NCBI RefSeq assembly: GCF_037968635.1
Contig: NZ_JBBKVV010000104.1
Coordinates: 86 to 64,085, forward strand
Direction: 5' to 3'
Length of the DNA: 64,000 nt
Source of the DNA: Phenylobacterium sp.
Lineage (GTDB): Bacteria > Pseudomonadota > Alphaproteobacteria > Caulobacterales > Caulobacteraceae
Under the pieces are notes generated by a model, which worked only from the letters and a program-made list of their open reading frames with translations, did no database searches and had not been told where the DNA came from. This document shows, piece after piece, positions 1,553 through 16,647 of the stretch (position 1 is its first letter; the number at the start of each line of letters is the position of its first letter). The position numbers and the translations under genes are program-made.

Positions 1553-4102
1553 TCATCGCTGGCGCTCACGCTCCTGCTCCCGGCCACGAATGCGTTCGCG
1601 TTCTGGAGGGCGCCTCATCTCCCGCTGCAGGTTCTCAATTCCACGCACGGCCCTACCCGTCGCGCCGCGAGCGGCCACCTCGCGCAGTGTCGGATCAATG
1701 CTGAAGGCGGCCGAAATTTCTCTGGAGGATCCAGGCTGCGCTTCTTCGAGCTTCCCGCGGCTGAACTCCAACATCTCTTGAAGCTCAGGCCGTGGCTCCC
1801 GGCCCCTGGATCGCGCCCGGGCGATCTCACCAGAAGCCCTCGCGAACGCCTGCAGTGCGCTTCCAAAACCCCGATCAGAGTTCACGGTCTGACCGTCCCT
1901 GTTGCCGCCAAACCCGAGGTAGTCGGACGCCATGTCCTTTCGCCGTTCGCGACCGAGACTGCTCGCAAGCTGCTCGTCGGAGGAAAAATCCTGTCGGCTG
2001 TAGTGCAGGGAGACTGACTGGCGGTGGCGCGAGAGCGCCACGTAGGCGGCATGGCTGTCCATGTGCTCTGTGGCGAGGACATAGCTGCGATCGACCGTGA
2101 CCCCCTGCGCCTTGTGAACGGTGGCCGCGTAGCCGTGATCAAGATCGGCGTAGTCCTTGAAGTCGAACGTGACGGACCGACCATCGTGGAGGCGCACAGT
2201 CGCACCTGACTTGGTTAGCTCGATAAGGTCACCCAAGGCCCCGTTCTTCACTCCGAGTGACCGCTCATTTCGCAGGAACATCACGCGGTCCCCCTGCGCC
2301 ATCATCCGCTCGCCGTGCACGGTCTCGACAGGCAGATCTTCGCCAAGACCGCCCATTCCTCGCACCTGCGCTCGCGCGAGTTGGTTGAGAGCCGCGACAT
2401 CCTTCCGAGTGTAGGTGAGGATCATCTGAGAGCTGTTGGAATCTTCCCGTCGATCTCGTGCCCAGCCGGCGATCAGGGAGGTACGCGCGTCGGCTATCTC
2501 GTCATGCGCATGGACAGCGTCAGCCTCCGCATAGCGCGCCAGCGCGACGTCAGTACGACCGGTTGCAAGCTCGCGGGTGGCCTGCCTCTGCCAATCGTCC
2601 CGCTGCCGTCGAACCTGGGTGATCTCGACTGCGCCATGACGCTCGGCTAGCGCCCGAAATGCAGCTCCGGCCTCGATGGCCTGCAGCTGCTGCGGGTCGC
2701 CAACAAGGACGACCTTCGCGCCGGCATCGCGCGCCTCGCCGAGCACACGCTGCATCTGCCGTGAACCGACAAGACCTGCCTCGTCGACCACGAGTATGTC
2801 CTTGTCGGTCAGCAATTCGCGACCTCGCGCCCAAGCGTGCTCAAGACTCGCGAGTGTCCTTGAGTTGATACCCGACCCCGTCTCCAGGCTCTCCGCCGCG
2901 ATACCTGAGAGGGCGCCTCCAAGGACCTTGTAGCCCTCCCCTTCCCAGGCGCGCCGAGCCACGGCGAGCATGCTGCTCTTGCCCGAACCCGCGTACCCCA
3001 CGACCAAGGCGAGATCGGTGTCGCCCGTGACATGGCGTAGGGCGGAGGCCTGTTCGGCAGAGAGAGTCAGCCCTCGGCCTTCCGAGTACCGAGCAGCCTC
3101 CCTCGCAATGGCGGGCGAAACACGATGCCCATTGCGGACGTCCAAGTCCGCTGCCGACGTCTCCAATTGCGCTTCGACCTCGACCATCTCTCGCGTCGTG
3201 AAGCGTTCCTGTCCGGCTCCATCGCGCCCGAGGTAGCCCAGGTCGGGCGCGCTCCAGACAGCGGCAAGCGCCCGGTCGAACTGGGCTTTGTCATCCGTGT
3301 GCCGGTGGATGAACCGTGACACGTCCTGCCGCGTGAAGGTGGCTTGGTGATGGGTGATCGCCTCCAATGCGATGCTCGGCTCTGCGATGATCCTCTCGCC
3401 GTTTCGCCTGGCGATTTCGCGATGATCTTGCGCCCGCTCGGCGTCCTCCCCTCTCCCCTCTCGACGGGATCCCGCGGCGCCGATTTTATGCTGCGGCTCA
3501 AGGTCAATTCCCTGCGCCTCCAACGACCTGTGATCGACACGGGCATTGATATCGAGCTCAGCCAGTCGCCGGTTGAGGTGGCCTTCCCAGGCCTCCCGCC
3601 AGTGTTCCAAAAGCTCTGTCTGGTTCCAGGCGCGAACCTTTGCGCCGAAACCGTCAGGCGTTGCCTCCCGCATGGCTAGCATCACATGCGCATGCGGTCT
3701 GGCTTCGCCATCCGCACCAATGTCCCAGTGCACGTTGAGGTCGGCCACCATGCCGCGATGGACAATTTCGTTTTGTACGAAGTCGCGCGCCAGGCCGACG
3801 GCGTCGGCCTGGCCAATCTCCCGCGGCAGGGCGAACTCTACCTCGCGGGCAAGCTGGGCATCCTTGCGCTTCTCCGCGACCTCGACCTCGTTCCACAGCG
3901 TCGCGCGGTCTGCCCATCGCTCCGGCGCGCCGTCGGGCGTCAGGATCTCCGAATGAACGACGCCGGCCTTGTTGGTGAAGTCGTGCGCGCGATCGAGCCG
4001 GTCATCATGCAGACGAGAGGCGGCGCGGTAGGCCGCCGCAGCCACGGCGCTCGAGCCTTTGGCCCGGCTGATGACTTTGGCGGAGAAGTGGTAGATCGCC
4101 AT
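1553..4102 (-). CDS. traA: Ti-type conjugative relaxase/helicase TraA (MobA/MobL MOBQ relaxase + RecD-like helicase)
   Basis: N-term 'MAIYHFSAKVISR...AAAAYRA', HUH 'PHAHVML'; helicase Walker A 'GYAGSGKS', 'VVDEAG', 'HGYAATVHKAQG'. Confidence 0.95.
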   Translation of the reverse strand: MAIYHFSAKVISRAKGSSAVAAAAYRAASRLHDDRLDRAHDFTNKAGVVHSEILTPDGAPERWADRATLWNEVEVAEKRKDAQLAREVEFALPREIGQADAVGLARDFVQNEIVHRGMVADLNVHWDIGADGEARPHAHVMLAMREATPDGFGAKVRAWNQTELLEHWREAWEGHLNRRLAELDINARVDHRSLEAQGIDLEPQHKIGAAGSRREGRGEDAERAQDHREIARRNGERIIAEPSIALEAITHHQATFTRQDVSRFIHRHTDDKAQFDRALAAVWSAPDLGYLGRDGAGQERFTTREMVEVEAQLETSAADLDVRNGHRVSPAIAREAARYSEGRGLTLSAEQASALRHVTGDTDLALVVGYAGSGKSSMLAVARRAWEGEGYKVLGGALSGIAAESLETGSGINSRTLASLEHAWARGRELLTDKDILVVDEAGLVGSRQMQRVLGEARDAGAKVVLVGDPQQLQAIEAGAAFRALAERHGAVEITQVRRQRDDWQRQATRELATGRTDVALARYAEADAVHAHDEIADARTSLIAGWARDRREDSNSSQMILTYTRKDVAALNQLARAQVRGMGGLGEDLPVETVHGERMMAQGDRVMFLRNERSLGVKNGALGDLIELTKSGATVRLHDGRSVTFDFKDYADLDHGYAATVHKAQGVTVDRSYVLATEHMDSHAAYVALSRHRQSVSLHYSRQDFSSDEQLASSLGRERRKDMASDYLGFGGNRDGQTVNSDRGFGSALQAFARASGEIARARSRGREPRPELQEMLEFSRGKLEEAQPGSSREISAAFSIDPTLREVAARGATGRAVRGIENLQREMRRPPERERIRGREQERERQR

Positions 4103-7648: not shown

Positions 7649-10600
7649 TCAGGGCTCGTAAGGTTCCAGATCCTTCGCCTTTGGCTTGGAAGTGCCAGGA
7701 TAGGACTGCCGCAGCCGCCGAGCGAGATCGCCCAGCCCGTCCTTACGTGTCAGCGCCGTCTCGACCAGTAGGGCTGCGGCGCGTCGTGGGGTCCCGCCCG
7801 CCTTCAGACCCTTGCGAAGATTGGGTTCGAGCTTGGCGAGGTCGAGCTCTGCGAGCGTAGCGTCGAATGTCTCGGGCGCGATGGTCCGAACAAGCCTCAC
7901 TACCGATACGAAATGAGGCTCATCCTTTGCGGGCCCCTCAGTCAGGGCCTTGACGAGGTTCTTCTTCGCGCAGGCATAGGCCGGCCCGAAAAGTTCGCGC
8001 CGGTCCTGGGCGACATAGCCAAGCACACCGAACGTGAAGCTCCAGTGGTGGCCAAACTCAATTGCTCTGCCGGCCTCCAGATGCTGTAACGCGACCTTGG
8101 GAGCAATCACCGCGAGCCGCGCGGGCATGACATTGATCTCGTCGGCCCGCTCCCCGATCACAGCCCTGATGGCGGCCAATGGCCGCTTGCCGCGACAGCA
8201 GATCCCCAGCAAGTGCTCGGCCTCGCGGAAGAGATGCGACCAATCCTCGCCGATGGTGTTTCCCAGTTGCTTCCAGTCCAACGCCAGGACGGTCGCCTCA
8301 TAGATTTTCGGCGCAGCCTTGCTCAGGAAGAGCAGCAGGTAACCGGCTTGCTGGAAATTACGGGTCTCGGTAGCCGACAGCTGCCCCGCCAGAACCGCCG
8401 GCTCGAAGCCCTCGCACAGCCGGGCGGCCAACGCCTTATGACGGGCGCGAGGCGCATACTTTCCGGTATAGGCGCCGAGGATGTCGAGAATCCTCAAGGT
8501 CTGGTGGGCGATGTCGTCGAGCTGGTGAAAGGTGTCGACTGGGCTAGCCTTCAGGAGCGTCACAGCCATAGGCGTCACGGCCTCGACCATGTCGAGCCCC
8601 AGATCCTCGTCAAACCATCCGGTCGACTTGGTGAGATTGGAATAGGCGCCGATCCAGACGTCCTGCGGCCACTCACGCCCCAATCGCTTCAGCGCTTCTC
8701 GGTCCACGGCGGCGCTGAACCTGGCTTTCCAGGCCTCTGGCCATGCGTTGCCCGTGAAGCTGATGTATTCGCCAAGGTGGTATGCACTCTGAGGTGCGGC
8801 GGCCGACACGCTCGCGGCCGCCTTCTCCGGATCGGCGGCCTCGAAAAGGGCTTCCACGATGGCAGAGCTGTCACGCATGGCATTGATCAGCCGGCGAACC
8901 CCGTAGCCCATTGGCTCCAACGGCGCCTCGATCCAGCGCGGTAGAAGTTCAAGGCCGTCGGCCAAGAGGATCTCGAACGGTGTCTGGTTTAGGTAGTGAA
9001 GTTCGACCAGGATCAGGCTGGCGAAGGTTCGCTCTTCAGGATCCTTAGCGGCCCAGCATCGCGCCACGAGCCGCTTCTCGACCTCCGGATCCATCTCGTA
9101 GAGCCATTGATTGTCCCAACGGACCTGACGCATCTCGTCCAGGAACAGCCGAAGGCCGGCGAGCGGATGGACCGGATCGCCGAGCGTCGCATCGAGGAGG
9201 CGACTAAAGGCTTGCCGCTCCTCGCCCTCCTGCAAAGCCATGATCCGCCGGATGGCCACCGACGCGAACCGCTGGTGAGGTGTGCGCAGGTCCGAAGGGC
9301 CCAGGAGCAGCCGTTCATCAACCAGCCAGTCAATCGCGTTGTCGATGGTTCCCGTCTGCAGCCCTGCGACCGCGAGCAAGACCTCGAACTCGGCCCGTTC
9401 GGGCCTAGCGTCGCGAGAGGCCAGTTGGCACATGGCCGCGGCGGCCAGCACGAGGTCCGCGCCCTTGGCTCGTGCGGCCCGCGCCGCATCCGAGGCTCTC
9501 GCCTCCCCGCCGCCGAGAATGAAGCAAAACTGCCAGGGGAGCTCGGCATGGGTCTCGGCAAAGTCTAGGCGGCGGTCTAGGGACTCTTCGAACGGCTTGT
9601 CCCCTATCCGGCTATCGGCGCTCCGGACCGCCGCTAGGGTCGCGGCCCGGTCGCGCCGCAGCTCGGCGGCGATCACCTGGACCGCGCGCTTGGGGTCCAT
9701 GACGATCGCGCCGCGGCCGGCCCCGCCGTGGCCCAAGGCGTTGTGGGTCGACAGCAGCAGTCGGTCCTGACGAGTCTCGCTCTCGGCCAAAGCCAAGAGA
9801 TGCGGGGCAGTTAGGTGAGCGTCGTCGATGAGGCAGAGTACCTTGCCGGCGGCGGGCGGCCAGTCGATGACCGGAGCCCGAGGATCGGTCATCTGGAACA
9901 CCTTCCAACCGTCGTCGGCGAAGGCCTTGGCTGCTTGCCAGGCGCAGACCGACTTGCCCGCGCCTGGCTGGCCTTCCAAGCGAGAAGAGTACGCGCGGCG
10001 AAGATCGGCGACCGCTGCGTTAGCCTCGGGCAAGGTTGGACAGGCCAAGACGTCTGACGGGCCGAGCCCTCGCCCCATCAGCGCCGGGCCAAGATCTCGC
10101 GACTGCGCGAAGGTCACTCGTCGCCAGTAGGCATGGGTTGGCGCGGGGGACGGCGCCTGGGCCAGGTGCTTGATGTCCTCCCGCAGGCCCCTGATCTCGT
10201 CGGCAGAGACCGCCTTGAGTGCGGGCGCGAGGGCCGAGAGATCAAGGCCAAGCTCGCCATAGAACTGGTCGAGCACCTGGGGGTGGGCGACGAGAAGGCC
10301 GCAGATATCCTCCCAGCCGAGAATACGGACCGGAAAGGCGCCCCCGGCGACGCGCGCTGCCGAAATCTCGCGTAAGGCTTCCTGCAGCTTGGCGTCGGCA
10401 GGCGCGGTGGTGGCGAAGGTCCAGTGGCTGAGCTCCGGGGCGAAAGTTTCGGCCTTGGCCAGTTCGCGTCTGACCTCGGCGATCGTGGCCCTGGTGCCGT
10501 AGGTTCCGTCCTTGCCCTTGCACTGGACGCCGAAGAAAGTCTCGTCACGCCCGGCGGGAGCCCCCCAGACGTCGACACCGGCCTGGGCCTGGCCGCCGCG

Positions 10601-11138: not shown

Positions 11139-11290
11139 TCAACGGCGTCTAGATCAGGTTTCGAGACGCGCCTTGCACCGGTTTTCGCTCAGCTTTAGCG
11201 TTGGGCGGGATGCTACGCGGCAGCGTGGGCCGCTCGCGGGCAACGACTAGATCGCGACCGCCCGCCGACCTCGTAATCAAAAGGATCGCC

Positions 11291-13033
11291 GTGCGGATCG
11301 TCAGGGTCGAAATCCAGAACTACCGCGGCATTGGGACGCTCGACTGGCAGCCCTCGCCTGGCATGAACTGCCTGATTGGGCCTGGCGATTCCACCAAGAC
11401 CACAATCCTCGATGCGATCGAGCTGGCCCTCAATCCCCGGTCAAACTATCTGGGCGATGACACCGACTTCCACGATCTCAACTTCGATCTCCCCGTCAGG
11501 GTGACGGTGACTCTGGTCGGCATTCCGGCCGAGTTCTGCATCGATACGCGCTACGGGCTGCATCTGCGCGGCTGGGACGAGACGGCCGCGAAGCTCGTTG
11601 ACGAACCGGGCGATGGGCTGATGGAGGCGTTGTCGGTTCGGGTCGAGATTGATCCATCGACCCTCGAAGGGCGCTGGGCGATCTATAATGATCGCTTGGC
11701 CGAGGACGGCGATCCGCCGTCCTTGCGCTACAAGGATGCGCAGCAGCTGGCGACGACGCGGCTGGGTCCGTACGCCGAGCGGCATCTGGGCTGGGGCCGA
11801 CAATCGATCCTCAATCGCATCGGCGAAGGCGGGCGGATGAGCGAGCAGCTGGCCAGCGCCAGCCGCGCCGCCCGCGCGGCGTTCAAGACCAGCAATAAGG
11901 ACGTGTTCGCCATCCCCACAGCTCGTGCCGAGAAGTTGGGCAAGCACTTCTCGGTCCGGGTTCGGCAGGCCTTTACCGCCGAACTCGATGTCCAAGGCTC
12001 GGCGATCACCTCCGGCGGCGTCGTTCTCCATGACGGCGACCTGCCGCTCCGCACCTTGGGCACCGGGTCTTCGCGGTTGATCGTCTCGGCCCTGCAGCAC
12101 AATGCCGGCGGGTCTCATATCGCCCTGGTCGATGAGATCGAACATGGCCTTGAGCCACACCGCATCGCCCGGCTGCTGAAATATCTCCGCAACCCGCCGG
12201 CGCTGGAGGATGAGGCCGCCAAGGCTGGCACCGCCGCGCCGCAGACCTTCCTGACCACCCATTCCAACGTCGTGATCCGCGAACTCGACGCAGGCGACAT
12301 CCACGCCGTTCGCTCCCATGAGGGCCGAACCCAGGTGCGGTCAGTTGAACAGGCCGCCGCGACCCCGGACATCGCCCAGCGCCAGCTGCGCGCGTCGCCC
12401 GAAGCCTTCCTGGCGAGGCGCATCCTGGTCGGCGAGGGCCGGACGGAATGTGGCCTGTTGCGCGGTCTGGACGCTTGCTGGATCGCGGACGGCAGAGACT
12501 CCTTCGCGCTCCGCGGCGTGGTGGCGATCGACGGCGGCGGCGTCCCTAACGCCGTGACCCTGACCCAGTCCCTGCTCGATTTGGGATACGAGTGCTTGGC
12601 CCTGCTCGACTCCGACAAACCGCCGTCTCAAGAATCCGTGGCCAAGGTCGAAGCGGTTGGCGGCGTGGTCTTGGAATGGGGAGACGACTGCTCGACCGAA
12701 GAGCGCCTCTTCCGTGATGTCCCGTGGGCGACGGTGGACGCTTTGGTGGGGCTGGCAATCCAGTGCAACACCGAAGACAGCGTGCTGGCGACCCTTCGGG
12801 CGACCTGCAAGTCCATGAAGCTCGCCGAACCGGTGGATCTGAGCCTTCCGGTCAGCCTCGATACACCTCAAGTCCGCGCCGCGCTTGGTCTCACCGCGCG
12901 CGAGAAGTCCTGGTTCAAGACCATTCCGCGCGGCGAACGGCTCGCGGCGCTGGTGTATCCGTGCCTGAAGCACATCCCGGCCACACCCTTGGCCAAGCAT
13001 CTGTCTCATCTGCGCGCGTGGGTCGATGGCTGA
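11291..13033 (+). CDS. gajA: OLD-family ATP-dependent endonuclease (ABC ATPase + TOPRIM), GajA-like
   Basis: 'MRIVRVEIQNYRGI', Walker A-like 'GPGDSTKT', signature 'LGTGSSR', Walker B 'LVDEIEHGLEP', H-loop 'LTTHS', TOPRIM 'VGEGRTE...LLDSD'. GTG start at 11291. Confidence 0.85.
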   Translation: MRIVRVEIQNYRGIGTLDWQPSPGMNCLIGPGDSTKTTILDAIELALNPRSNYLGDDTDFHDLNFDLPVRVTVTLVGIPAEFCIDTRYGLHLRGWDETAAKLVDEPGDGLMEALSVRVEIDPSTLEGRWAIYNDRLAEDGDPPSLRYKDAQQLATTRLGPYAERHLGWGRQSILNRIGEGGRMSEQLASASRAARAAFKTSNKDVFAIPTARAEKLGKHFSVRVRQAFTAELDVQGSAITSGGVVLHDGDLPLRTLGTGSSRLIVSALQHNAGGSHIALVDEIEHGLEPHRIARLLKYLRNPPALEDEAAKAGTAAPQTFLTTHSNVVIRELDAGDIHAVRSHEGRTQVRSVEQAAATPDIAQRQLRASPEAFLARRILVGEGRTECGLLRGLDACWIADGRDSFALRGVVAIDGGGVPNAVTLTQSLLDLGYECLALLDSDKPPSQESVAKVEAVGGVVLEWGDDCSTEERLFRDVPWATVDALVGLAIQCNTEDSVLATLRATCKSMKLAEPVDLSLPVSLDTPQVRAALGLTAREKSWFKTIPRGERLAALVYPCLKHIPATPLAKHLSHLRAWVDG

Positions 13034-14471
13034 TCCGCACGTTGACGACCTGGCCGCCAGGATCTGCAGGGTACAGGCCGGGTCGATCGTGGCGGCGGCC
13101 GGCTGCGGCAAGACGGAGCAGATCGTCAACGCCACCGTCCTGAGCCAGGGACGGCGGCTCATCCTCACCCACACCCACGCCGGGGTCGACGCCCTGCGCA
13201 AGCGTATGCGGGAGAAAGGGGTGTCGACCAGCCAGTACGCCATCGACACCATCGCGGGCTGGTGCCTGCGCTACGCGGCCGCCTATCCGCGCCGGTCCGG
13301 GCTGAAAGTGGCCACGCCCAAGGGTGATCAAGACTGGACAGCGGTCTATGCTGGGGCGATCGCGTTGCTGGAGAGCGGTGCTGTCACCCAGGTTTTGAAG
13401 GTCTCCTACTGCGGTGTGTTCGTCGACGAGTACCAGGACTGCGGCGGCGCTCAGCATCAGGTCTTCGCGGCTCTGTCGAAAGTGCTGCCCGTCTGCGTGT
13501 TCGGTGATCCCCTGCAGGCGATCTTTGATTTTGGGCAGACGCCCGTCGATTGGCGCGGCGAGGTGTTTGCGCGGTTTCCCCAGCTTTCGACCCTGACCAA
13601 ACCCTGGCGATGGCATCGGCATGGAAACGCCGAGATGGCCAATTGGCTAGAAACGGTGCGCCCCGTCCTCGAGGCTGGACGCCCGCTGGATCTTGCGGCC
13701 CGACCCGCTTGCGTGACCTGGGAATGGTTGCCTGACCAGGACGGGCCACGCCAATCAAAAATTGTCTCCACCTGCCTCAAGGCGATGAAAGGCGAGGGAA
13801 ACCTGGTGGTGATCGCCGATCCGGCCAACCTCAATGGACGGGCGTTGATCGCCAAGAAGCTCGGCCGACAGGGCTTTTCCAACATCGAGCCCATCGAGTG
13901 CAAGACGGTGTATGCCGCGGCCAAGAGGCTGGCGGCGACCTCGGGGCCAAGGCGCCTGGTCGCGCTCCTGGCGTTCCTCGAGCAATGCATGTCCGGCGTC
14001 GCGAAGGGTGAGTTTCTCAAGGCCGTCGCGTCGCGCAAGGCTGGCGGCAAGCTCGGTAGCGCCAAGTTCGGGGACCTTGTCGAGCTTGGCGTGGCCTTCG
14101 ACCATGGTGCGGATGATGAGGTCTGTCTGGCCTTGGTCGATGGGTTCGCCGCCCAGGCGATGACGGTCGTCTTCCGCCGTGAAATGCTATATTCAATGCG
14201 TTCGGCGCTGAGGATGAAGGTGGCGGGCGATGCCGCAGATCTGTCGGAAGCCTTGTGGCACGTGCAGACGAAGATCCGACACGCGGGTCGGCAGATCCCC
14301 TACTATAGCGTCGGCAGCACGCTCCTGGTGAAGGGGTTGGAGTTTGCCAACGTCGTGGTCATCCACTCGACGAACATGAACAACAAGGACTGGTACGTCG
14401 CCTTGACGCGGGCGACCCACCGGCTGACGATCCTGTCGCCGAAAGCGGTGATCGCTCCAGGGTTCGCGTGA
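13026..14471 (+). CDS. gajB: UvrD/Rep-like SF1 helicase, GajB-like
   Basis: 'AAAGCGKT', 'FVDEYQD', 'FGDPLQAIF', 'VKGLEF', 'YVALTRA'. Overlaps the gajA stop by 8 bp. Confidence 0.85.
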   Translation: MADPHVDDLAARICRVQAGSIVAAAGCGKTEQIVNATVLSQGRRLILTHTHAGVDALRKRMREKGVSTSQYAIDTIAGWCLRYAAAYPRRSGLKVATPKGDQDWTAVYAGAIALLESGAVTQVLKVSYCGVFVDEYQDCGGAQHQVFAALSKVLPVCVFGDPLQAIFDFGQTPVDWRGEVFARFPQLSTLTKPWRWHRHGNAEMANWLETVRPVLEAGRPLDLAARPACVTWEWLPDQDGPRQSKIVSTCLKAMKGEGNLVVIADPANLNGRALIAKKLGRQGFSNIEPIECKTVYAAAKRLAATSGPRRLVALLAFLEQCMSGVAKGEFLKAVASRKAGGKLGSAKFGDLVELGVAFDHGADDEVCLALVDGFAAQAMTVVFRREMLYSMRSALRMKVAGDAADLSEALWHVQTKIRHAGRQIPYYSVGSTLLVKGLEFANVVVIHSTNMNNKDWYVALTRATHRLTILSPKAVIAPGFA

Positions 14472-14505: not shown

Positions 14506-15048
14506 CTAGATCTTGGACGACGCCTTCCAGGCGGCGACGAAACTGGGCGTCAGCTCGGCGAGACGGTCTAGGAGAACCTCCAAGGTCATCGGTGGATTCT
14601 TTAGCCGGGCGACCTGCGCGGTCAGAGCGACCGCCAGGGCTTGAGGCGTCTTTTCCAGCAACAGGCAGAGAAAGTCGTCCGGGCTAATGGCGGTCACGCC
14701 GGGCGGCAGCTTGGCGAAGTCCTTAAGGTTGCTGGTGACGATCAGGCTGGCCCCGCCCTGGACCGCGCACGCCGCGACGTGGCGGTCCTTGACGTGGTTG
14801 GGCATGGTGAGGATCAGGGGCTCGTGGCCCTCGACGAAGGCGTCCTCGAACTGAAGATCAAGGGTCGCGCGAAGACGTTTGGCCTTGGGGGCGGTCAGGC
14901 GGCCGTCCGCCACCAGGTTGCGGGTAGCTTCCTCGACGATGAACACGCTCCAGCGCGGCTGAAAACAGCCGGCCGCCGCCGCCGACAGAAGGGTGTCGCG
15001 CAGGGGCAACGGATAAAGGACATCGGCGTCGAGGACAGCGACGATCAC
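14506..15048 (-). CDS. PIN domain protein (PIN_3-like VapC ribonuclease toxin)
   Basis: 'VAVLDADVLY', 'IVEEATRNL', 'KDRHVAACA', 'IVTSNLKDF', 'SPDDFL'. Confidence 0.9.
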   Translation of the reverse strand: MIVAVLDADVLYPLPLRDTLLSAAAAGCFQPRWSVFIVEEATRNLVADGRLTAPKAKRLRATLDLQFEDAFVEGHEPLILTMPNHVKDRHVAACAVQGGASLIVTSNLKDFAKLPPGVTAISPDDFLCLLLEKTPQALAVALTAQVARLKNPPMTLEVLLDRLAELTPSFVAAWKASSKI

Positions 15049-15785
15049 TGGGGTTTGGCCTTTCGGATCAGCGGCCGACGGCCACCAGGCTTCAGGGCCG
15101 TTTCGGAGGGCTTGGACAGGAGCTCTTCGGCGGTCGCGGCGGACTTGGGCCCGGTCTTGGCCTTCTGCGGGTTGGCGAGCATCTGGGCGAGCTTGGACTT
15201 CGGCGCGGGCTTGGCCGTCTTGGGCTCGCGCGAGGCCCGTAGGCTGGCGGCCACGTCGGTGGCACCCAGCTCCTGCGCGCGTTCCACGAAGGCATTGTAG
15301 GTCGCCGCCTGCAGGCCGGCGGCCTTTAGTTTCAAGGCCGGGTCGCCGCTCGGATCAGTCTTGGCCTGGTAGAGCGAGACGATGACCGCGTGCGGGTTGG
15401 GCAGGAAGGCCAGGCCCATGGCGTGCGCCCCGCTGGGCGCGACCTCGACGAAGCCGAGATCGACCAGGCGACGCAGGCGATCCTGGAAGGTTCGGGGCCC
15501 GCGCTGTCCGGCGAACCCAGCCGCGAAGGCCAGGTCCGGCATGCGGCCCAGGCGCACGAAGGCGTTGTCCCAGGTCGCGCACCACAAGGCGACATAGGTG
15601 TCCGACAACGGCTGGCCCTTGGACAGCTCGTCCAGGATCCGGCAGATATAGGGCATGGTCTTGGGCATGGTGGTGAAGCCATGGAAGCGGTTGCGATCCC
15701 ACATCCGCGCCTCGGCGTCAGGGAACAGACTGTCGCGCAGCTCGACGTCGCGATCGCGGATGGCCTTGCCTTTCACGCTCGGCAT
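15045..15785 (-). CDS. Hypothetical protein with probable winged-HTH core and Lys/Pro/Ala-rich tail
   Basis: AAAGGAG RBS before ATG 15785; 'LAFAAGFAGQRGPRTFQDRLRRLVDLGFVEV' is wHTH-like; its stop overlaps the PIN start (GTGA). Confidence 0.7.
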   Translation of the reverse strand: MPSVKGKAIRDRDVELRDSLFPDAEARMWDRNRFHGFTTMPKTMPYICRILDELSKGQPLSDTYVALWCATWDNAFVRLGRMPDLAFAAGFAGQRGPRTFQDRLRRLVDLGFVEVAPSGAHAMGLAFLPNPHAVIVSLYQAKTDPSGDPALKLKAAGLQAATYNAFVERAQELGATDVAASLRASREPKTAKPAPKSKLAQMLANPQKAKTGPKSAATAEELLSKPSETALKPGGRRPLIRKAKPQ

Positions 15786-16101
15786 GGGAGGGCTCCTTTG
15801 AGGCGGACATAAATTCCGCTGATTGGTAGGCTTATAGAATGAAACATCAATAGAGTCAGCGACGTAGATATGCACTCAGCCCATTTAACCTGGCGCATTG
15901 ATGTCAGAAGTGATTGCGAGCTTGTCACATCAAGGGCAACTCGAATGGTGGCCTGGCTTGTTTGTGCCTATCGGGTCGCGTAAGCTACTGATCTAGCACG
16001 GGTAATAGTCTATCCCGATGTGCTGGCGGTGATCGGGTGCTCGGCTGTGCTGACCATGTGCTCCCGGTGCTGACTGGGGGATCGGCCAAGGGGGAGCCTT
16101 G

Positions 16102-16119
16102 GTTGCGTTTGTAGCGTTT
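16102..16119. promoter_or_regulatory. Tandem 9-bp repeat, candidate operator upstream of the excisionase-like HTH gene
   Basis: GTTGCGTTT/GTAGCGTTT directly upstream of ATG 16135, in the divergent intergenic region. Confidence 0.35.
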
Positions 16120-16134
16120 ATACCGCACCTGACG

Positions 16135-16647
16135 ATGATGACCCGCACGACTGCCTCCAGAAAGATCGACAAGCTGGCTCGCCACGCGGTGCCGGCGGTG
16201 CTGTCGTTCGACGATCGCCAGATGGCTGCGCAGCTGTCGGACCTGTTGTTGGGCGCGGCTGGCGGGCCTGGCCGGCTGTGCCTAGCGCGCGGCGATGGCT
16301 ATTCAATCGCACTGTCTCCCGCCTTGGTGAGTGTCCTAGAAACGGTCGCGGAAATGGTGACGGGCGGCGCCAGTGTCACCGTCCTGCCCAGCCACACCGA
16401 GCTGACGACCCAAGAGGCGGCCGACACGCTCAATGTGTCGCGCCAGTACCTCGTGCGCCTGATCGATCGCGGCGACCTGCCCTCCCACAAGGTTGGCGCT
16501 CACCGCCGGGTGCGCGCCGAGGACCTTGCCGCCTATCGTCACCGCCGCGACCAGGCGCGCCGCGAGGCCTTGGATGTTCTGGCCGCCGACGCGCAGGACG
16601 CGGGCGGCTATGACGCGCCGATGAATTTTGGGCCGCGTCGGCGCTGA
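16135..16647 (+). CDS. Excisionase-family (HTH_17/MerR-like) DNA-binding protein, typical PIN_3 antitoxin partner
   Basis: 'LTTQEAADTLNVSRQYLVRLIDRGDLPSHKVGAHRRVRAEDLAAY'. Start 16135 or 16138. Confidence 0.88.
   Translation: MMTRTTASRKIDKLARHAVPAVLSFDDRQMAAQLSDLLLGAAGGPGRLCLARGDGYSIALSPALVSVLETVAEMVTGGASVTVLPSHTELTTQEAADTLNVSRQYLVRLIDRGDLPSHKVGAHRRVRAEDLAAYRHRRDQARREALDVLAADAQDAGGYDAPMNFGPRRR

Follow-up and report, generated by a model that had tools for sequence, protein, structure and literature searches.

Gene X and its upstream repeat blocks as the constant part of a mobile cassette with exchangeable toxin-antitoxin or defense cargo

We analyzed a three-gene module in a 64,000-nucleotide (nt) stretch of a Phenylobacterium sp. 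genome (contig NZ_JBBKVV010000104.1, positions 86 to 64,085; the whole stretch is called the window below), in which an uncharacterized gene, X, lies between a PIN_3-family toxin gene and a divergent gene for an excisionase-type HTH_17 antitoxin. Comparison with related loci showed that the three genes and their non-coding blocks travel together as a conserved, mobile cassette. X and its upstream blocks form the constant part, and a toxin-antitoxin (TA) pair or a stand-alone defense effector forms the exchangeable part. The order of the cassette is antitoxin <- (antitoxin operator, CCCTT..ATCCC block, AGCAC array, palindrome, promoter) -> X -> toxin. On balance, X may well be a cassette-specific transcription factor that binds the array and controls the X-toxin operon as well as the divergent antitoxin promoter, with HTH_17 as the true antitoxin. 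A textbook type II TA system is a two-gene operon whose antitoxin acts as neutralizer and regulator at once; the cassettes show three unrelated TA families remodeled in the same way around one uncharacterized protein and its repeat array.

Conservation of the cassette and exchange of its cargo

The genes of the module in the window are the following (aa, amino acids; ORF, open reading frame):

14506-15048, minus strand: PIN_3-family toxin gene, 180 aa, start codon GTG at 15048
15045-15048, minus strand: GTGA, shared by the X stop codon TGA and the PIN start codon GTG (TCAC on the plus strand)
15045-15785, minus strand: gene X, uncharacterized, 246 aa, start codon ATG at 15785, AGGAG 8 nt upstream
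16135-16647, plus strand: HTH_17 (excisionase-type) antitoxin gene, 170 aa from ATG 16135; the ORF opens with TTG at 16099

The PIN product matched Pfam PIN_3 above the cut-off (E=2.6e-6) and the NCBIfam model RSP_2648_fam_PIN with E=1.2e-27 and 97 bits, which is under the 170-bit cut-off of this model. Its acidic residues D7, E40, D88, and D110 are kept in an alignment with ten homologs. The product of the divergent gene matched Pfam HTH_17 (E=1e-13) and the excisionase model TIGR01764 (E=6e-15). The GTGA overlap suggests translational coupling of X and PIN, and in the other PIN-type loci the two genes likewise overlap by 4 nt or are no more than 10 nt apart.

The layout was recorded for 80 X loci, among which three TA types were found:

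HTH_17 <- -> X - PIN: 13 loci, X 47-92% identical
RelB <- -> X - YafQ: 32 loci, Pfam RelB E ~1e-20, YafQ_toxin E ~1e-30, proteins of normal length
DUF433 <- -> X - DUF5615: 2 loci

In all of these TA-type loci the antitoxin gene is divergent and the toxin gene starts at most ~10 nt from the X stop codon, mostly with a 4-nt overlap. For a Sphingobium plasmid, the same arrangement can be read from RefSeq's own annotation, which lists a RelB/DinJ antitoxin on the minus strand followed by a hypothetical protein and a YafQ toxin on the plus strand. The PIN-type loci come from Caulobacter, Phenylobacterium, Brevundimonas, Sphingomonas, Sphingobium, Blastomonas, and Allosphingosinicella, that is, from Caulobacterales and Sphingomonadales. 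Maximum-likelihood analysis of X grouped the 13 PIN-type proteins in a single clade (support 99/96), and the PIN/DUF5615 clade has a long stem. Caulobacterales and Sphingomonadales are intermixed within the PIN clade, which indicates that the module moves as a unit.

Besides TA toxins, X precedes a variety of other genes, which points to a generic regulatory role:

L048, directly 3' of X: AbiJ_NTD3+Abi_C protein
L068, directly 3' of X: Abi_C protein
L061, directly 3' of X: TIR protein
L021, directly 3' of X: DUF3800 protein
L025, directly 3' of X: PHP-ATPase matching PADLOC Ppl
L038, 3' of X in the same direction: Gabija-like OLD+UvrD pair
L032, directly 3' of X: 1323-aa NACHT protein, with an XRE gene divergent
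L064, directly 3' of X: 1334-aa AAA_16 STAND protein

On Methylobacterium plasmid pMOC2, the annotated neighbor of X is an abortive-infection protein. X itself has 119 close homologs, and its relatives form 838 clusters at 50% identity in a library of 1.84 billion proteins. Relatives occur in 80 species genomes and on 165 plasmids, and X was present in 6 of 400 alphaproteobacterial species (about 1.5%); in the window's own genome it is single-copy. The cassettes reside in chromosomal islands, in a Burkholderia phage, and on plasmids, among them enterobacterial ColE1 plasmids of 3-5 kb.

The first-pass annotation of this region had described the GTGA overlap, the 246-aa X, the divergent HTH_17 gene, and a tandem repeat, all of which are present in the sequence where it placed them. 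Its three-component unit holds as an evolutionary unit, since the survey of X neighborhoods found X together with PIN and HTH_17 in 13 loci with X proteins of a single clade; a role of X in controlling or triggering the PIN RNase is inferred rather than observed. Its other option, a single inversion event that brought in a stray gene, does not agree with the recurrence of the layout around RelB/YafQ and DUF433/DUF5615. An inversion that parted HTH_17 from PIN, with an unrelated X landing between them by chance, can be entertained formally because the canonical order in this PIN family is HTH->PIN. We regard it as extremely unlikely: 13 genomes, with X as little as 47% identical, preserve the layout, a further 34 show it around two unrelated TA families, and, judged by the X tree, it is not carried by recent copies of one element. 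The GTGCT/AGCAC array in the spacer, the role of X as promiscuous head of defense operons, and the assignment of the tandem repeat to HTH_17 go beyond that annotation.

PIN_3 toxins were said there to follow their HTH_17 partner normally, and this is what the plasmids show. Six of the seven plasmid homologs of PIN that were inspected are overlapped by a co-directional helix-turn-helix (HTH)/excisionase gene of ~150 aa, without any third gene (Edwardsiella (IncC), Skermanella, Corynebacterium, Agrobacterium pusense, Sinorhizobium medicae, and Sulfitobacter). The plasmid PIN proteins are 36-51% identical to that of the window and keep the catalytic acidic residues. Over 104 aa, the HTH protein from Edwardsiella shares 43% identity with HTH_17 of the window, which marks HTH_17 as the normal antitoxin partner of this PIN family and the layout in the window as rewired. 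Compared with these canonical operons, which have the antitoxin first, co-directional, and overlapping, the toxin and partner families are the same, but here the antitoxin is divergent and X plus a structured control region of ~350 bp are interposed. Of the features of a type II PIN/HTH_17 system, the window has the PIN domain with its acidic residues and a cognate DNA-binding antitoxin, which is adjacent in all 13 PIN-type loci, whereas the antitoxin-first two-gene operon is absent: the antitoxin gene is on the opposite strand and X occupies the overlapping slot. DinJ(RelB)-YafQ of E. coli is encoded by a dinJ-yafQ operon, from which the 32 YafQ-type X loci depart by a divergent relB and by a yafQ gene coupled to X instead. 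DinJ-YafQ works as a two-gene system.

Two loci retain the pair without functional X. The closest plasmid PIN homolog (51% identical), on an Agrobacterium vitis plasmid (L090, 1231-2352), has a divergent HTH partner 48% identical to HTH_17; this HTH<- ->PIN pair retains TAAACGCTATAAACGCAAC, the AAACGC tandem repeat, and lacks both X and the AGCAC array. The pair either derives from the module by loss of X or preceded it. In Sphingomonas sp. TDK1 (L075, 5001-5640), a 4-bp deletion frameshifts X in comparison with the 91%-identical L012, and PIN and HTH_17 are intact. Given the canonical HTH-PIN and DinJ-YafQ operons, the A. vitis pair, and the TDK1 pseudogene, neutralization does not appear to need X. 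A defect of the other kind was seen at L013, a locus from a metagenome-assembled genome, where the PIN gene is split over two frames.

A complete Gabija pair directly adjoins the module in the window and is convergent with the PIN gene, with GajA at 11201-13033 (610 aa as listed, PADLOC E=1.8e-191) and GajB at 13026-14471 (481 aa, PADLOC E=1.7e-152). A role of X-PIN-HTH_17 as a Gabija accessory was rejected, because no Gabija pair accompanies the module outside the window and the near-identical L001.

The AGCAC array and the control region

The spacer between X and HTH_17 in the window contains the following elements:

15803-15819, minus strand: small hairpin GCGGA-N7-TCCGC in the probable X leader, just 5' of the ribosome-binding site
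15831-15859, minus strand: putative X-PIN promoter with -35 region CTGACT (15859-15854), a 17-nt spacer, and -10 region TATAAG (15836-15831)
15844-15851: TTGATGT half-site ACATCAAT inside the spacer of the putative promoter, from a repeat search
15898-15910 / 15921-15933: 13-nt inverted repeat with two TTGATGT half-sites, from a repeat search
16020-16071, minus strand: AGCAC array, with GTGCT on the plus strand at 16020, 16037, 16047, 16058, and 16067
16076-16094: GGGGGATCGGCCAAGGGGG block, reading CCCCCTTGG..ATCCCCC on the strand of X, flanking the array on the antitoxin side
16102-16110 / 16111-16119, plus strand: tandem 9-mers GTTGCGTTT and GTAGCGTTT, 16 nt 5' of the probable HTH_17 start

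The most telling of these elements is the array. It was defined as at least three exact AGCAC pentamers within 60 nt on the X strand, and the definition was applied to 78 testable loci and 2054 control windows from the same loci. Arrays were present in 63 of the 78 X loci and in 3 of the 2054 control windows, and the same test found none on the strand opposite to X. The loci without an exact array hold the variants AGGAC, AGAAC, or AGTAC. In general, the arrays consist of 4-7 pentamers with a spacing of 8-11 nt (mode 9-10); that of the window also has a spacing of 8-11 nt, includes a degenerate GTGAT at 16029, and is the only such array in the 4.1-Mb host genome according to a search for the three-copy pattern. 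The distance from the array to the X start is 220-300 nt in TA-type cassettes and 330-400 nt in the rest. Arrays were found with any cargo and across Alphaproteobacteria, Betaproteobacteria (phage), and Gammaproteobacteria (plasmids). A CCCTT(C/G)..ATCCC block always precedes the array, in cassettes with PIN, YafQ, DUF5615, and defense cargo, and block and array recur together on a Salmonella ColE1 plasmid and in phage Musica (six pentamers).

The putative X-PIN promoter was placed by alignment to the block CTAAGTCA-TTGAww-N17-TAnnnT, which is conserved 5' of X in all cassette types, and 15831-15859 is on this basis the probable promoter of the X operon. A hairpin comparable to that at 15803-15819 is present in L003 and an imperfect one in L001. 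The palindrome between array and X promoter is clade-specific; at the matching relative place, related cassettes hold TGACTCATATGAGTCA, TTGCAACATATGTTGCAA, or TGACATG-N2-CATGTCA.

On the antitoxin side, each TA type has its own element beside the antitoxin start. The HTH_17 start is probably ATG 16135 and not the listed TTG 16099, since homologs share a methionine matching ATG 16135/16138 and the stretch upstream is conserved at the DNA level beyond any start codon. The tandem 9-mers would then be a non-coding upstream element. AAACGCAAC was found in 13/13 PIN-type loci and in no other locus type, and with its retention in the X-less A. vitis relative this assigns the GTTGCGTTT/GTAGCGTTT repeat to the HTH_17 gene rather than to X. 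The AAACGC tandem repeat at 16102-16119 is thus a candidate HTH_17 operator. In YafQ-type loci, TTGTAGCTACAA is located just 3' of a conserved promoter-like sequence, TTGACC-N17-CATTTA.

An Rfam scan of the window spacer and of six related loci returned nothing at the cassette. The array acting as an RNA was rejected, as a complementary partner was absent and the array lies 5' of both inferred promoters. A sigma-54 enhancer/IHF architecture was also rejected, because the -24/-12 box suited one locus and not the others.

Protein X and its proposed role

X had no match in Pfam (E<=0.1), NCBIfam, PHROGs, or PADLOC. An AlphaFold2 model was calculated from a 22-sequence alignment and had a mean predicted local distance difference test (pLDDT) score of 80, with values >90 over most of residues 40-180. 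It shows an N-terminal helix followed by a conserved extended segment (W29, GFxTxPKTxP), a canonical winged helix at ~61-127 (a1 61-70, b1 76-78, a2 79-88, a3 96-110, hairpin 114-127), and a C-terminal domain of four helices (131-186). The residues G90, F91, G93, R95, R103, and L107, which are invariant in the X family, sit at the turn and the recognition helix. The Lys/Pro/Ala-rich basic tail (~190-246, encoded at 15045-15215) is predicted to be disordered. The model is therefore in line with the first-pass annotation, which had taken X for a winged helix-turn-helix (wHTH)-like protein with a basic tail. Within the PIN clade the tails differ in sequence; most close with a short basic motif resembling [KR][KR]xx[ILV][RK]x[KR]P (for example RRPLIRKAKPQ, KRPIKLRPRP, RSFRLRPSPKK), which recalls an AT-hook or minor-groove tail. 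Full-text literature searches found no description of the X family or of the antitoxin<- ->X-toxin layout.

In the mechanism that we propose, X would act as a winged-helix DNA-binding protein that oligomerizes head to tail and cooperatively on AG(C/G)AC pentamers. The array would lie ~200 bp 5' of the X promoter and adjoin the divergent antitoxin promoter. X bound to the array would set transcription of the X-toxin operon and probably also that of the antitoxin gene, as the array is ~60-120 bp 5' of the inferred antitoxin start site. With X and PIN on one mRNA and presumably coupled in translation, the amount of X would report toxin synthesis. HTH_17 would neutralize PIN and autoregulate via the AAACGC tandem repeat. 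The split of the pair would put toxin and antitoxin under separate promoters and uncouple their transcription, and a signal acting on X, such as phage infection or element loss, could shift the ratio and free the RNase. With respect to the direction of control, we lean towards autorepression of the toxin operon by X.

Several points weigh against this proposal. DNA binding by X rests on the predicted fold with weak structural matches: Foldseek searches of the Protein Data Bank (PDB) and of the BFVD viral models gave generic winged-helix proteins alone (MarR, RPC62, TrmBL2), the best with E=0.03 and a template modeling (TM) score of ~0.3, and a search of PDB sequences with the X profile gave chance-level matches (best E=0.029, CheY2). 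A scan with the sigma-70 consensus called no promoter, and the promoters were placed by alignment alone. The central pentamer base (C, G, T, or A) showed no covariation with the X recognition helix. A host factor or the antitoxin, rather than X, could bind the array. Moreover, the cargo label needs just four changes on the X tree, which would suit direct contact between X and toxin as well.

Such contact would make X a second, promiscuous antitoxin, a chaperone, or an adaptor that touches toxin or antitoxin directly, leaving HTH_17, RelB, and DUF433 mainly as transcriptional regulators. X does occupy the classical antitoxin slot, 5' of the toxin gene and overlapping it, its phylogeny follows the cargo type with the long stem for the PIN/DUF5615 clade, and its disordered tail is C-terminal as in many antitoxins. 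This tail is, however, not conserved in sequence; the divergent partners are full-length homologs of proven or canonical antitoxins; X also heads self-contained effectors without antitoxins (NACHT/STAND, Gabija-like, TIR); and PIN and HTH_17 persist without functional X in two genomes. The conserved array would be left unexplained. We therefore consider direct action of X unlikely, and the evidence favors transcriptional control via the repeat array. A precedent for direct action is Panacea (DUF4065), a hyperpromiscuous antitoxin domain (PMC8832971). It resembles X in that one family occurs with many unrelated toxins in the upstream slot; Panacea neutralizes directly and without a second antitoxin, whereas X cassettes keep the cognate antitoxin. 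Pfam searches of X gave no match to DUF4065, SecB, or WYL. The SecB-like third gene of toxin-antitoxin-chaperone systems is accordingly not found here, X being predicted to consist of a winged helix and further helices.

Plasmid centromeres and excision-factor sites typically contain arrays of direct repeats of ~10 bp, to which small DNA-binding proteins bind. By this resemblance, X and the array could serve the maintenance of the mobile element, as a centromere or positioning system (StbA/stbDR, ParR/parC) or a replication or excision factor, with toxin and defense genes merely accumulating nearby. The presence of X on 165 plasmids and its location near island ends or beside integrases would fit, but a ParA-type partner is lacking, X is single-copy on chromosomes, the distance and orientation of the array are fixed to the X promoter and not to any att site, and the apparent translational coupling of toxin genes to X goes beyond mere proximity. 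Replication of the enterobacterial X plasmids depends on ColE1 RNAI, and the annotations of the three that were inspected list no integrase. Taken together, we hold a maintenance function to be quite improbable. Two specific variants were rejected. X as a replication initiator with iterons is ruled out by ColE1 RNAI, which was found on two of three small plasmids inspected (L083, L084; Rop also on L083), and by the single copy of X on chromosomes. The array as a set of arm-type or excision-factor att sites does not agree with its fixed place relative to X on three plasmids annotated without integrase.

The transcription-factor role has precedents that X matches only in part. The winged-helix proteins P2 Cox, lambda Xis, StbA, and OmpR/PhoB-type regulators coat direct repeats head to tail. 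RdfS is another winged-helix protein on a direct-repeat array (PMC11963761). X cassettes share with P2 Cox, RdfS, lambda Xis, and StbA the 5-10 short direct repeats about one helical turn apart. Those proteins have 60-130 aa and act in excision or plasmid positioning, whereas X is larger, has extra conserved domains, and is linked to toxin or defense cargo.

Among TA systems, omega-epsilon-zeta is a three-component system with a separate regulator, omega, which binds arrays of short repeats. A second system of this kind is paaR2-paaA2-parE2 (PMC8630535). The likeness to X cassettes is a third protein dedicated to transcriptional control. Both systems are, however, single three-gene operons with an antitoxin that has no DNA-binding domain and a regulator of the ribbon-helix-helix (RHH) or Xre-like type, whereas in X cassettes the three genes are not all in one operon, the antitoxin keeps its own DNA-binding domain (HTH_17, RHH, or DUF433) and promoter, and X is an unrelated winged helix.

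BrxR/CapW are regulators of defense operons with a wHTH-WYL-WCX architecture (PMC9122601). RptR (79 aa) binds TAGCTA palindromes over the -10 box, and the protein is conserved together with the repeated site in its own promoter (PMC12255303). With BrxR/CapW, X shares a function only, that of a regulator gene heading diverse defense operons; X has no WYL domain, its C-terminal part being a short helical bundle and a disordered tail. With RptR, it shares the combination of a conserved regulator and a repeated site, while X has ~180-250 aa and its array is ~200 bp 5' of the promoter. To our knowledge, neither BrxR/CapW nor RptR has been described with split TA pairs. Regulators heading defense operons and separate TA regulators are thus already known; X has no domain in common with these or with Panacea, and the antitoxin<- ->X-toxin layout is not described for any of them. 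If X acts as proposed, this unnamed family of ~840 sequence clusters would control the timing of toxic-cargo expression, and the cassette offers a testable case of uncoupled toxin and antitoxin expression, which bears on the question of how TA toxins are released.

Leader hairpins and further settings of X

In cassettes without an antitoxin, the X leader contains hairpins in tandem, 1-3 per leader, whose stems vary in a compensating manner below a conserved 9-nt loop, GGUCCAAAC. Examples located 30-170 nt 5' of the X start, from loci L015-L077, are:

L076, 4821-4956: leader hairpins
L059, 3082-3209: leader hairpins
L064, 4960-4982: leader hairpin

Of the strict loop motif, 45 copies lie in the 320-nt leaders, compared with 28 in the other 1.47 Mb, counting both strands. 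At least five flanking pairs were present around 32 of the 45 leader motifs and around none of the 28 elsewhere. With a looser loop pattern, hairpins were found in 25 of 36 cassettes without a divergent antitoxin and in 0 of 44 TA-type loci, the window included. Each of the seven stem pairs varies on both sides, where the hairpins counted had been selected for pairing. Rfam gave no match to the leader hairpins, which are a candidate for a new cis-regulatory RNA motif.

A wider proposal, which we put forward tentatively and with more doubt than confidence, is that X and the AGCAC array are a portable, signal-responsive platform of mobile elements of Alpha-, Beta-, and Gammaproteobacteria that can arm any toxic effector, with X as a sensor of infection or element loss and with the GGUCCAAAC-loop hairpins restraining cassettes that have no antitoxin. 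If so, the platform would convert addiction modules (PIN/HTH_17, YafQ/RelB, DUF5615/DUF433) into inducible abortive-infection systems, and the leader hairpins would replace the restraint by the antitoxin as a new cis-regulatory RNA.

X and the array could also be used as a search flag for new defense or toxin genes, such as cargo proteins that belong to no family. Small X plasmids of 3-5 kb are found in E. coli, Klebsiella, Enterobacter, and Salmonella, including many plasmids of clinical isolates. Their X proteins have 170-192 aa and are followed by a 181-aa protein without Pfam or PADLOC match, which is a candidate toxin or defense gene and an example of what such a search could flag. On Salmonella plasmid pRGI00316 (L083, 2290-3710; also L084 and L082), the order is CCCTTGCATCCCC, six AGCAC/AGTAC pentamers, X, and the 181-aa gene.

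The P2-like temperate Burkholderia phage Musica (L094, 2660-5287) encodes an X homolog of 30% identity near its integrase. The nearest same-strand gene 3' of this X begins ~370 nt further on and encodes a Schlafen/AlbA_2 + HATPase_c_4 protein; a small ORF on the opposite strand lies between the two. On Sinorhizobium meliloti plasmid pSmeRU11d (L086, 1737-2947), X is shortened to 129 aa and an entire ParD-ParE operon is transcribed divergently from it. In L077 (~3700-4100), a canonical RelB-YafQ operon is located ~900 bp 5' of X in the same direction.

About 290 nt past the X-STAND cassette of L064, a partial tmRNA match was found at 9847-9920 (Rfam RF00023, 20 bits, under the gathering score), which suggests that this cassette is on an island integrated at ssrA. 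Further X cassettes adjoin housekeeping genes or integrases in L055, L065-L068, and L071.

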